A DNA stretch of 64,000 nucleotides, from assembly GCA_963847705.1 (NCBI GenBank), contig CAWKBC010000030.1, forward strand, positions 384,001 to 448,000, written 5' to 3'. The DNA is from an uncultured Pseudomonadota bacterium. Its GTDB lineage: Bacteria; Myxococcota_A; Polyangia; Fen-1088. This document shows, one piece after another, positions 18,588 to 21,900 of this stretch. The translations under genes were made by a program, and so were the position numbers. Positions within the stretch are counted from its first letter, which is position 1. Each line of letters starts with the position of its first letter. Under the pieces are notes generated by a model that was given only the letters and a program-made list of their open reading frames with translations, searched no databases and was not told where the DNA came from.

Positions 18588-20261
18588 ATGACCGCGCCCG
18601 CCCGACAGACCGCGAAGCAGACCAAGTTCATTTTCGTCACCGGTGGGGTTGTCTCGTCACTGGGGAAGGGGTTGGCCTCGGCCTCGATCGGCAGCCTGCT
18701 GGAGACCCGCGGGCTCAAGCTGACCATCCAGAAGCTGGATCCATACCTCAACGTCGACCCGGGGACGATGAATCCCATGCAGCACGGCGAGGTCTTCGTC
18801 ACCGACGACGGCGCCGAGACCGACCTCGACCTCGGTCACTACGAGCGGTTCATCTCGCAGCGGATGACCCGGCTGAACAACGCCACCAGCGGCCAGATCT
18901 ACCAGACCGTCATCCAGAAGGAGCGGCGCGGCGAGTACCTGGGCGGCACCGTCCAGGTCATCCCCCACGTCACCGACGAGATCAAGCACCGGATCGTGGA
19001 GTGCGCCAAGGGGCAGGACGTGCTCATCGTCGAGGTGGGCGGCACCGTGGGCGACATCGAGTCGCTGCCGTTTCTGGAGGCGATCCGCCAGCTCCGCTTC
19101 GACGTGGGGCCCACCAACGCCATCTCCATCCACGTCACGCTGGTGCCGTACATCGGCGCCGCGGGCGAGATGAAGACCAAGCCGACGCAGCACTCCGTGA
19201 TGAAGCTGCGCGAGATCGGGATCCAGCCGGAGATCCTGCTCTGTCGCTCCGAGCGCCCCATCGAGGCGCCGATGAAGAAGAAGATCGCCATGTTCACCAA
19301 CGTGGCGGCCGACGCCGTTTTCTCGGCCGAAGATGTCAGCTGCATCTACGAGGTGCCGATCCGCTTCCACGAGGAGGGGGTCGACGACAAGATCGGCGAG
19401 CTGCTCAACATCTGGTCGCGCGCCCCCGAGCTCACTGGATGGGAGCGCGTCGTCCACCGGCTCAAGAGCCCGCAGGCCGAGGTGGACATCGGTCTGGTCG
19501 GCAAGTACGTCGATCTCGTCGAGTCCTACAAGAGCCTCAACGAGGCGCTGATTCACGGCGGCATCGGCAACGAATGCCGGGTCAACCTGCACCACATCGA
19601 CTCCGAGGAGATCGAGAAGCGCGGCGCGCATGCGCTGCTCGGTGACATGGACGGCATCCTGGTGGCGCCCGGCTTCGGCAGCCGCGGCATCGAGGGGAAG
19701 GTCGAGGCGGTTCGCTACGCGCGCACGGAGGCGGTTCCGTTCTTCGGCATCTGCCTGGGCATGCAGGTGGCGGTGATCGAGTTCGCGCGCAACGTGACCG
19801 GCCTCAAAGGCGCGAACTCGACCGAGTTCGATCCGCAGGCCGCCTTCCCGGTGGTCGACTTTCTCCCCGAGCAGCGGAACGTGACGATGAAGGGGGCGAG
19901 CATGCGCCTCGGCTCCTACCCCTGCTTGCTGACGCCCGGCTCGAAGGCGGCGGCGGCCTACGGCGCCTCCGAGATCGCCGAGCGGCACCGCCACCGCTAC
20001 GAGGTGAACAACGAGTTCCGCGAGGCGCTCACCAGCCACGGCATGCTGATCTCGGGCGTCTCGCCCGACAAGCGGCTGGTCGAGATGGTCGAGCTGCCCC
20101 AGCATCCATACTTCGTCGGGTGCCAGTTCCACCCCGAATTCAAGTCCCGGCCCCAGTCGCCGCATCCCCTGTTCCAATCGTTCGTGGCAGCGGCGCTGCA
20201 CGCACGTTTGGGGGATCGCCGGCGCCGCTCGGCCGAGGTCGGCGCGTCCGCCGCTTCGTAG
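18588..20261 (+). CDS. pyrG: CTP synthase
   Basis: [53 protein letters not shown] before ATG 18588. Confidence 0.97.
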
Positions 20262-20356
20262 AAAAGTCCGGGTAATTTCGAGTGGTTACGTCTTAGACGC
20301 ACCGCCGGGCGTGTCTGTGTGTGCGGGTATGTGCAATTCGTGTACCAGAATGCCCA

Positions 20357-20385
20357 TTGACGCTTGTCGGTGACGACCTATAGGT
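20357..20385 (+). promoter_or_regulatory. Putative sigma70 promoter of the rpoN operon
   Basis: TTGACG-N16-TATAGGT in a locally AT-richer gap. Confidence 0.4.
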
Positions 20386-20406
20386 GTAAAAACGATCGGG
20401 AGCGGA

Positions 20407-21900
20407 ATGGCCATCGAGATTAAGCAGCACCTCAAGCTTCAGCAGCAGCTGGTGATGACGCCCCAGCTGCAGCAGGCGATCAAGCTGTTGCAGCTTTCCC
20501 GTATGGAGCTGGCCGACACCATCCGGGACGAGATCCTCGAGAACCCGATCCTCGAGGACGCCGTCGACACCGCCAGCGAGGAGCCGAATGGGAAGACCGC
20601 CGAGGCGGCCGACGGCGCCGACGTCGAGCACGTGGGCGAGACCGAGACGCCGGTGATCGAGATCCGCGAGGACAAGATCGACACCACCGCCGAGGTGAAG
20701 GCGGACAGCAACTCGAACGACGCGGTCAACGACTTCGACTGGGAGGGCTACCTGGACAACCAGGCGGCGGCCGCGCCGATGCCCTCCTACAAGTCGAACA
20801 ACGAGGACCTGCCGTCGCTCGAGTCGACGCTGACCCGGGGGACGTCGCTCTTCGACCACCTCGAGTGGCAGTTGAAGCTCAGTCCGTTCTCGCACGAAGA
20901 GGATGGGATCGGGATGCTGATCATCGGCAACCTGACCCCCGACGGTTATCTCGAGGAGCCGCTCGGCGATCTGGCCGAAGAGGCGTCCGTCAGCCTGGAG
21001 GTCGCCGAGTCCGTGCTGAAGCGGATCCAGGAGTTCGACCCGATCGGCGTCGGCGCCCGCTCGCTGGGAGAGTGCCTGCTGATCCAGGCGCGCCACATCG
21101 GCGCGGACGACGAGGTGGTGGTCGGGATCATCGAGAAGCACCTCTCGAACCTGGAGAAGAAGAACTACCAGGCGATCGCCAAGGACCTGGGCCAGCCGGT
21201 CGACGAGATCTACGAGGCGGCCAAGGTGGTCAAGGGCTTCGACCCCAAGCCGGGGCGGCAGTACACCTCCGAGGAGCCGACCTACATCACCCCGGACGTC
21301 TACGTCCACAAGATCGGCGACAAGTACTTCGTGGTCGCCAACGACGACGGGCTCCCCAAGCTGAAGATCTCCGACTTCTACCGGACGGCGCTGGCGGGGG
21401 GACCGAAGGCGCGCGAGTACATTCAGGAGAAGCTGCGCAGCGCGCAGTGGTTGATCCGCTCCATCCAGCAGCGGCAGCGGACCATCGGCCGCGTCACCGA
21501 GTCGATCCTCAAGTTCCAGCGTGAGTTCTTCGACAAGGGGACGGCCCACCTCAAGCCGCTCATCCTGCGCGACGTGGCCGAGGACATCGGCATGCACGAG
21601 TCGACGGTCTCGCGGGTGACCACCAACAAGTACGTCCACACGCCCCAGGGCATCTATGAACTTAAGTACTTTTTCAACTCGGGGATCTCGCGAACCGACG
21701 GTGACGACCTGGCCTCCGAGGCGGTCAAGCTGAAGATCAAGCAGATCATCGGCTCGGAGAGTCCGAAAAACCCGCATTCGGACCAGCGCATCGTCGAGCT
21801 GCTCAAGGATCAGAACATCGAAATCGCCCGCCGGACCGTGGCGAAGTACCGCGAGCAACTTCGCATCTTGTCGAGCTCGAAACGGCGCCAAGTTTTCTAG
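20407..21900 (+). CDS. rpoN: RNA polymerase sigma-54 factor
   Basis: QQQLVMTPQLQQAIKLLQL region I, HESTVSR, RpoN box ARRTVAKYR. Confidence 0.97.
   Translation: MAIEIKQHLKLQQQLVMTPQLQQAIKLLQLSRMELADTIRDEILENPILEDAVDTASEEPNGKTAEAADGADVEHVGETETPVIEIREDKIDTTAEVKADSNSNDAVNDFDWEGYLDNQAAAAPMPSYKSNNEDLPSLESTLTRGTSLFDHLEWQLKLSPFSHEEDGIGMLIIGNLTPDGYLEEPLGDLAEEASVSLEVAESVLKRIQEFDPIGVGARSLGECLLIQARHIGADDEVVVGIIEKHLSNLEKKNYQAIAKDLGQPVDEIYEAAKVVKGFDPKPGRQYTSEEPTYITPDVYVHKIGDKYFVVANDDGLPKLKISDFYRTALAGGPKAREYIQEKLRSAQWLIRSIQQRQRTIGRVTESILKFQREFFDKGTAHLKPLILRDVAEDIGMHESTVSRVTTNKYVHTPQGIYELKYFFNSGISRTDGDDLASEAVKLKIKQIIGSESPKNPHSDQRIVELLKDQNIEIARRTVAKYREQLRILSSSKRRQVF

Follow-up and report, generated by a model that had tools for sequence, protein, structure and literature searches.

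A pyrG–rpoN junction without Kdo and Lpt genes as a probable scar of ancient lipopolysaccharide loss in the Polyangia

The stretch of DNA analysed here (64,000 nucleotides, referred to as the window) corresponds to G000:C30:384001-448000, where G### denotes a genome, L### a locus, C## a contig, and f# a family; G000 is the genome of the window, and f1 is its family. This genome belongs to the class Polyangia (Myxococcota), its nearest titled RpoN loci being from Polyangia, Haliangiales, and Kofleriaceae, and its assembly comprises 6.10 Mb in 48 contigs, with an estimated 84.7% completeness and 6% contamination. In the window, the CTP synthase gene pyrG lies directly beside rpoN, which encodes sigma-54, and the genes for 3-deoxy-d-manno-octulosonic acid (Kdo) synthesis (kds) and lipopolysaccharide (LPS) transport (lpt) that separate the two in other genomes are missing. 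The junction is best read as one of two scars left when a clade of the Polyangia, with an outer membrane that is likely LPS-free, lost its lipid A, Kdo, and Lpt genes long ago, a reading to which we assign a probability of about 0.88. That the gene loss is real and old is well supported, and the absence of LPS as a molecule is likely, judging from gene content.

A preliminary description of the window had reported a spacing of only 145 bp between pyrG and rpoN, the lack of kdsB upstream of pyrG, and an intact downstream run of hpf-ptsN-hprK-rapZ-EIIA-ptsH-ptsI. All three were borne out, the first by gene calls at 18588-20261 and 20407-21900 and the last by family-model scores, two of which fell under cut-off. 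No kdsB was found upstream of pyrG in the window, where a 250-bp gap is followed by a response regulator gene and ribF on the minus strand. The response regulator occupies the kdsB site of Geotalea and of two Polyangia genomes, G039 and G051, and holds the same position in same-genus loci. Pseudogene remnants were sought in the 145-bp gap with a panel of LPS proteins, and only chance-level matches were obtained (E 0.005, 395-bp target).

The order expected for Geobacter-type lineages, kdsB-pyrG-kdsA-kdsD-kdsC-lptC-lptA-lptB-rpoN-hpf, was matched by the Geotalea locus L079, in which kdsD, kdsC, lptC, and lptA were named by order and sequence; in Escherichia coli K-12, the order is kdsD-kdsC-lptC-lptA-lptB-rpoN-hpf. 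Synteny was then compared in sister taxa, as the preliminary description had proposed. G039 and G051 retain kdsB-pyrG-lpxL-(lptC)-lptA-lptB-rpoN, G038 keeps kdsA-lpxL-lptB, and G049 and G041 keep lptA-lptB at their rpoN loci. No kds or lpt match was found at any of the 21 same-family rpoN loci, and in 20 of them the gap between pyrG and rpoN is <500 bp, as measured from tblastn ends. Both genes could be placed in 73 of 80 titled rpoN loci, with a gap of ≤500 bp in 58 of these 73, and kds/lpt matches lay between them in only two titled loci (L079 and L083). The adjacency is therefore not peculiar to G000. In a more distant bacterium, whose RpoN is 53% identical, pyrG and rpoN likewise lie close together, with 192 bp between them (L070:8199-11476), possibly by a separate loss of the same kds/lpt block.

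Family-model searches of G000 returned no match for LpxC, LptF/G, WaaA, LpxB, or KdsA, and each of these models gave matches in class relatives and control genomes. LPS proteins from Polyangia (verified by Pfam/NCBIfam), Geotalea, and E. coli were also used in BLAST and profile searches against 30,992 six-frame open reading frames (ORFs) of G000, with MsbA, LptE, and LpxH/I left out of the gene set. Among these ORFs, no match was found for LpxB, LpxK, LpxL, WaaA, KdsA/B/C, or LptA/C/F/G, and a 68-sequence LpxC profile gave nothing at E < 0.001. Five of the top cross-matches to LpxA/LpxD were identified as GlmU, a NeuD-type protein, a CysE-like protein, maltose acetyltransferase, and a nucleotidyltransferase. 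The best LptB-model score in G000 was 161 bits, under the cut-off of 240, compared with 240 bits for the rpoN-adjacent lptB of G051 and 181 bits for that of G039. By these searches, G000 lacks LpxA, LpxB, LpxC, LpxD, and LpxK of lipid A synthesis as well as the enzymes of Kdo synthesis and transfer (KdsA/B/C/D and WaaA), beyond weak and short matches to a KdsD profile. Two LptD Pfams, PF04453 and PF19838, matched 0 of 13 Polyangia, LPS-bearing ones included; searches with them are uninformative for this reason, and they were set aside. A Geotalea-seeded LptD search gave candidates in all but one of five LPS-bearing genomes, which led to a five-sequence profile whose best match in G000 had an E value of 0.13. 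Profiles built from Polyangia-based seeds for LptF/G (10 sequences), LptA (4), and LptD (5, one of them from Geotalea) gave no significant match in G000. A full lpx/kds/lpt set elsewhere in the genome, which would indicate relocation rather than loss, was thus not found by the whole-genome search.

A second scar lies on contig C27 of G000, where lolD-bamA-skp is followed after 5 bp by fabZ and then by genes for proteins of 425 and 221 aa. In G051, the order is bamA-skp-lpxD-fabZ-lpxA, followed by genes for 610 and 218 aa, and the flanking genes of the two loci are homologous (E 1e-23 for the 425/610-aa pair and 2e-33 for the 221/218-aa pair). The arrangement skp-lpxD-fabZ-lpxA was also seen in G039 and G038, and E. 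coli presumably shares the order lpxD-fabZ-lpxA. Twenty bamA loci were fetched: skp directly precedes fabZ in nine (G001, G026, G029, G043, G044, G045, G046, G054, and G055, all genomes without LpxC), three have the full order, and eight are rearranged or cut at contig ends. Because only lpxD and lpxA are gone and fabZ stayed, this pattern indicates selective loss rather than an assembly gap. Housekeeping genes were spared at either scar, pyrG and rpoN at the first and skp and fabZ at the second.

Class-wide counts cover 161 genomes, namely G000 and 160 class members with a completeness of at least 92%, and the family count was made over 27 genomes at least 92% complete; the counted genomes are kin and not independent samples. 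Within f1, LpxB, LptF/G, and WaaA were each found in 0 of 27. Among 36 relatives from this family, LpxC was over cut-off in none, BamA was present in all, and LptF/G was found in one (G013). Across the class, LpxB was found in 28 of 161 genomes (133 without), LptF/G in 20, and WaaA in 4. The three are likewise all absent from f15 (0 of 26), f11 (0 of 27), and f19 (0 of 11), and the full pathway was found in f4 and f18. Family f2 (G037, G050, G060, and 12 more) has LpxB and LptF/G in 15 of 15 and WaaA in 0 of 15, and its members possibly make a Kdo-free LPS. The selective loss of LPS-specific genes suggested from the window is hence supported by the whole-genome searches, the bamA-skp-fabZ scar, and the absence across the family.

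A tree of rpoN and bamA was constructed for 22 genomes (LG+G4, quick search), with Geotalea as an outgroup represented by rpoN only. Families f1, f8, f9, f10, f15, and f16, which lack LpxC and LptF/G, form one clade (SH-like approximate likelihood ratio test, SH-aLRT, 96), and this clade is sister to the LPS-bearing G038/G039/G051 (SH-aLRT 99). The LPS-free G046 and G048 branch apart, and the minimum number of changes on the tree is three. The approximately unbiased (AU) test rejected one loss shared by all LPS-free Polyangia (p-AU 0.001; p 1e-71 with f7 added), and a one-gene rpoN FastTree for the order of events was dropped as too weak. Loss is a simpler direction than gain because in the sister group these genes still occupy the places that they have in Geotalea.

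The machinery of an outer membrane is retained in G000, which encodes BamA (658 bits), Skp, LolCE (268 bits) and LolD (282 bits; both Lol matches under cut-off), a TamA-like/TamB pair, an AsmA-like protein, a FadL-family barrel, a LolA-like protein, MlaF/E (MlaE 219 bits), and a protein with an MlaD domain. Its own fatty-acid genes include fabZ and, on C32, plsX-fabH-fabD-fabG-acpP-fabF, named from sequence. As to the outer-membrane barrels described in the window, one stands, a protein over cut-off for TIGR04551, which we take to be a myxobacterial outer-membrane barrel family; the second is weak and falls under cut-off. The suggestion of an LPS-free diderm holds insofar as gene loss is accompanied by retained outer-membrane genes, but the state is not specific to this genome, being old and clade-wide. 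Lipid A, Kdo, and Lpt genes would have been lost long ago in a clade that kept BamA, Lol, Tam, and Mla, and the Lpt bridge may have gone as well because no lipid A was left for it to carry. Glycerophospholipids, inositol-type ones among them, probably fill the outer leaflet, and in this genus hopanoids may stiffen it. For the transport of these lipids to the outer membrane without Lpt, TamB/AsmA-like bridges, MMPL/HpnN-like exporters, and Mla are candidates.

The inositol-type component is suggested by a myo-inositol-phosphate synthase (MIPS; 66% to a Pfam-verified MIPS), two phosphatidylinositol phosphate (PIP) synthase-like genes, for which a BT1523-type model fits best but stays under cut-off (102 bits), and PgpA. 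One of the PIP-synthase-like genes is near a family 4 glycosyltransferase (GT4) gene and beside an LPG_synthase_TM gene. An operon at L232:4048-12004 (G000:C27:844048-852004) encodes a Gfo/Idh/MocA dehydrogenase, a PIP-synthase-like protein, GtrA, a class III aminotransferase, PgpA, and an MMPL protein, and it was found whole or in part at 8 of 11 relatives' loci, including those of G054 and G055 from other families. Its PIP-synthase-like gene was matched in 31 of 36 f1 relatives; among 10 genomes that have both LpxC and LptF/G, one gave a match, at paralogue level only. Searches of the PDB and the ESM Atlas with the operon proteins returned generic families only. From its predicted enzymes, this operon is a candidate for making an aminated inositol-type phospholipid together with its exporter, and it is the best lead for a replacement. 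A more specific proposal, that at least six Polyangia families (Kofleriaceae included) share one loss of LPS and Lpt and fill the leaflet with an undescribed amino-inositol-type phospholipid through this operon, is doubtful; if true, it would describe an Lpt-free and sphingolipid-free way to an asymmetric outer membrane.

Two further loci of G000 carry MMPL exporters. At L231:1052-18480 (C43), an Omp85-family gene is divergent from an MMPL exporter gene, with neighbours for a GT4, a nucleotidyltransferase, a GMC oxidoreductase, an asparagine-synthase-like protein, an inositol monophosphatase-like protein, and a di-myo-inositol phosphate phosphate (DIPP) synthase-like protein. At L233:6765-16065 (G000:C27:431765-441065), an MMPL exporter, a FadL barrel, a FabH-like enzyme, a DUF1302 protein, and a LolA-like protein are encoded, which from their families likely form a lipid transport unit.

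Hopanoid synthesis is indicated by a squalene-hopene cyclase, Shc (TIGR01507, 652 bits against a cut-off of 431), and HpnH (TIGR03470, 382 against 225), which are encoded with HpnO-like, HpnG-like, and squalene-synthase-like proteins in a cluster at L199:11912-18127 (G000:C30:281912-288127). The hopanoid genes are common to 23 of 25 genus relatives, and a protein of cyclase grade was found in only 2 of 11 other f1 genera. All five MMPL-family exporters of G000 score under the HpnN cut-off, and an HpnM-like protein reaches 68 bits against 160; the 785-aa gene beside the latter was considered as HpnN and proved PrkA-like instead. No single replacement gene set common to all LPS-free genomes was found.

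It is unlikely that f1 instead fills its outer leaflet in the manner of Sorangium, with sphingolipids and ornithine lipids, although a Sorangium lacking LPS has been reported, and the preliminary description had hinted at such a replacement. The hint did not survive, as G000 has no protein of serine palmitoyltransferase (SPT) grade and candidates for ceramide synthase are rare among its relatives. The sole match of G000 to the alpha-oxoamine synthase (AOS) family reaches at most 132 bits on SPT models with cut-offs of 500-670 and fits PRK07505 best. Strong AOS matches occur in 22 of 25 genus relatives, as a single copy in 21, and the four checked (G001, G005, G008, and G020) belong to the BioF clade and have a bioD-like gene directly after them. 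In G015, an extra SPT-like gene lies beside a putative ceramide synthase gene. No homologue of the latter was found in G000; 14 of 24 other class genomes have one, and so do 2 of 36 f1 relatives, in which it sits on a small contig (2-8 kb). Both gene names are provisional because no SPT model was over cut-off, even in the SPT-like clade, and no Pfam was matched. Ornithine lipids are described for Sorangium in PMC12971839, and the ornithine-lipid N-acyltransferase domain PF13444 is present in G026 and G031 but absent from G000, G001, and G029. Type I polyketide synthases (PKSs) of ∼2,300 aa with a C-terminal AOS-family domain are encoded at L182:8014-15048 (G026) and L208:2866-9810 (G029); such PKS-AOS fusions, which also speak for this alternative, could in some genera lead to sphingoid-like or amino-lipid products.

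Several observations weigh against the LPS-free reading. Besides the incompleteness of the assembly, G000 has a demonstrable gap: a stretch of G001 with bioF has 0 of 14 genes with a 70% match in G000. The KdsD profile gave four weak, short matches in G000, the best at 34 bits. Lpt models are weak in the class, both LptD Pfams missing every LPS-bearing member tested, and of the 12 genomes of family f7, 9 have LpxB, none has LptF/G, and 1 has WaaA, with lpxD-lpxA-lpxC kept (e.g. L170:8016-10275 in G042:C47 and L171:9722-10540 in G053:C14). Because the LptD Pfams fail and f7 has LpxB without LptF/G, Pfam alone is insufficient against a diverged exporter. In G013, of the same genus as G000, LptF/G and lpxD with an lpxC fragment were found. 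The proposed fillers of the leaflet are also unevenly distributed. No squalene cyclase was found in 7 of 11 other f1 genera (G026, G028, G029, G030, G032, G034, and G035, of which G029 is 100% complete), and hopanoids were rejected as a universal replacement; no match to the PIP-synthase-like gene was obtained in G028, G029, or G036, nor in the LPS-free f11 and f13.

The G013 genes lie on contigs of 6 and 3 kb (L163 and L164; G013:C767 and C939) that carry a fused LptF-LptG gene and skp-lpxD. They are likely contamination, because the contigs are short, the ParA/ParB encoded on the 6-kb one have matches of 41-42% in G000, and the bamA locus of G013 itself carries the skp-fabZ scar, with genes 49-86% identical. 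The G013 matches were kept in all counts.

The weakness of the Lpt models, and the early lpx genes without detectable LptF/G in f7, would fit a strongly diverged Lpt-like bridge that carries another lipid after the loss of LPS, comparable with the proposal for Caulobacter sphingolipids; LptF2/G2/C2 are put forward as sphingolipid movers in PMC11324152. This is highly unlikely, as the profiles built from Polyangia find no LptF/G, LptA, or LptD in G000, lptA-lptB is physically absent at its ancestral place, and the LptF/G model PF03739 matches 20 class members and 7 control genomes. Still less probable is a normal LPS made from genes that were relocated or that lie in the unassembled 15% of G000. 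The completeness and the gap speak for it, and the LPS-bearing f2 keeps no lptB beside rpoN, so that the junction alone is no proof of loss. However, LpxB, LptF/G, and WaaA are missing from every near-complete f1 member, the two scars are separate and lie inside contigs, and in G039 the LPS genes occupy at least four separate loci, which one gap could not hide together. That the Polyangia were ancestrally without LPS and its LPS-bearing families gained the genes by transfer is equally hard to credit: although most genomes (133 of 161) lack LpxB and the deepest branches of the tree are two LPS-free lineages, G039 and G051 keep the kdsB-pyrG and lptA-lptB-rpoN linkages as in Geotalea (lptA-lptB-rpoN likewise in E. 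coli), and lpxD and lpxA surround fabZ in G038, G039, and G051.

The features of the window around the junction are collected in Table 1. A box of the sigma-54 -24/-12 type lies in the 145-bp gap on the strand opposite to rpoN. Of 106 rpoN upstream regions, 29, mostly of f1, carry such a box, and none has it on the plus strand (shuffle rate 0.0008), with a pattern picked after the alignment was seen. Facing away from rpoN, it may be an autoregulatory site at which sigma-54 represses its own gene. A promoter scan of the gap found nothing; the string TTGACG-16 nt-TATAGG (20357-20384), present in 4 of 10 aligned regions, is not put forward as a promoter. The peptidoglycan recycling genes anmK and murQ are encoded on the minus strand of the window at 12485-14663.

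Table 1. Features of the window at and around the pyrG-rpoN junction
Feature	Position	Strand	Support or remark
ribF	16971..17957	-	Upstream neighbour; NCBIfam riboflavin kinase/FAD synthetase, 318 bits
Response regulator	17954..18337	-	Divergent from pyrG; Pfam Response_reg, 30.9 bits
pyrG, CTP synthase, 557 aa	18588..20261	+	ATG at 18588; NF003792, 845 bits; TIGR00337, 804 bits
Gap, pyrG to rpoN, 145 bp	20262..20406		Site of kds/lpt block in other genomes
Sigma-54 -24/-12-type box	20333..20347	-	In the 145-bp gap; opposite to rpoN
rpoN, sigma-54, 497 aa	20407..21900	+	TIGR02395, 450 bits
hpf	21977..22600	+	TIGR00741, 69.7 bits
ptsN-like enzyme IIA (EIIA)	22620..23081	+	TIGR01419, 93.6 bits, under cut-off
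hprK	23399..24361	+	TIGR00679, 369 bits
rapZ	24358..25209	+	NF003828, 336 bits
Mannose-type EIIA	25336..25794	+	NF040761, 65 bits, under cut-off
ptsH (HPr)	25798..26079	+	TIGR01003, 86.5 bits
ptsI	26143..27915	+	TIGR01417, 513 bits
TIGR04551 family protein	30293..32239	-	398 bits; cut-off 300
Small outer-membrane beta-barrel-like protein	41685..42257	-	PF13505, 23.2 bits, under cut-off 28.7

Nearly all free-living Gram-negative bacteria are taken to have LPS and Lpt. Within the Polyangia, each step of their decay can be seen, from the full pathway (f4 and f18) through lipid A and Lpt genes in the absence of WaaA (f2) and early lpx genes without LptF/G (f7) to nothing (f1), and the occurrence of these steps within one class provides a natural series for LPS replacement and for the Lpt-free crossing of the periplasm by lipids. 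The question of LPS replacement is testable now because Kofleriaceae and Haliangiales include cultured strains. No account of class-wide LPS loss in the Polyangia was found in a literature search, from whose coverage most subscription journals were excluded.

The closest known case, Sorangium cellulosum So ce56, belongs to the same class as G000 and is said, in a 2011 report by Keck et al., to be likewise Gram-negative and LPS-lacking. In Sorangium, reportedly only part of the LPS genes is missing, and sphingolipids, ornithine lipids, and ether lipids are used. Polyangiaceae/Labilithrix are among the named homologues of the f7 LpxC, and SPT-like and ceramide-synthase-like genes were found in the two f7 genomes examined. 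Whereas f1 lost every lpx gene tested and is mostly without ceramide genes, f7 keeps LpxB in most genomes; the two families fall in different clades, and joining them was rejected by the tree test. The Sorangium state thus looks different from that of f1, as f7 keeps early lpx and SPT-like genes. The inositol-lipid pathway of Bacteroides consists of MIPS, PIP synthase, and a PgpA-type phosphatase. MIPS, PIP-synthase-like genes, and PgpA are shared with G000, which, unlike the Bacteroides cluster, adds the Gfo/Idh/MocA dehydrogenase, class III aminotransferase, GtrA, and MMPL exporter and has no SPT.

An outer membrane without LPS, like that of f1, is also described for Sphingomonas in PMC11324152. 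Sphingolipids are produced by Sphingomonas and Caulobacter, whose Lpt paralogues are the proposed carriers; f1 shows neither, and the Sphingomonas-type state, with LPS lost and LptA/B/C/D/F/G kept, was not found in G000. Social motility of Myxococcus requires LPS, according to PMC4880591. As in f1, enzymes for Kdo2-lipid A were not found in Wolbachia, Anaplasmataceae, Borrelia, and Treponema, as stated in PMC3087551 on Gram-negative bacteria without LPS genes, whose main text does not mention Sorangium. Those bacteria are host-associated, whereas f1 genomes are large (3.5-9.3 Mb) and have their own fatty-acid genes. LPS-free diderms as such are known; what is new here, judging from the genes found, is that much of a class has apparently lost its genes for lipid A, Kdo, and Lpt altogether and is without the ceramide genes.

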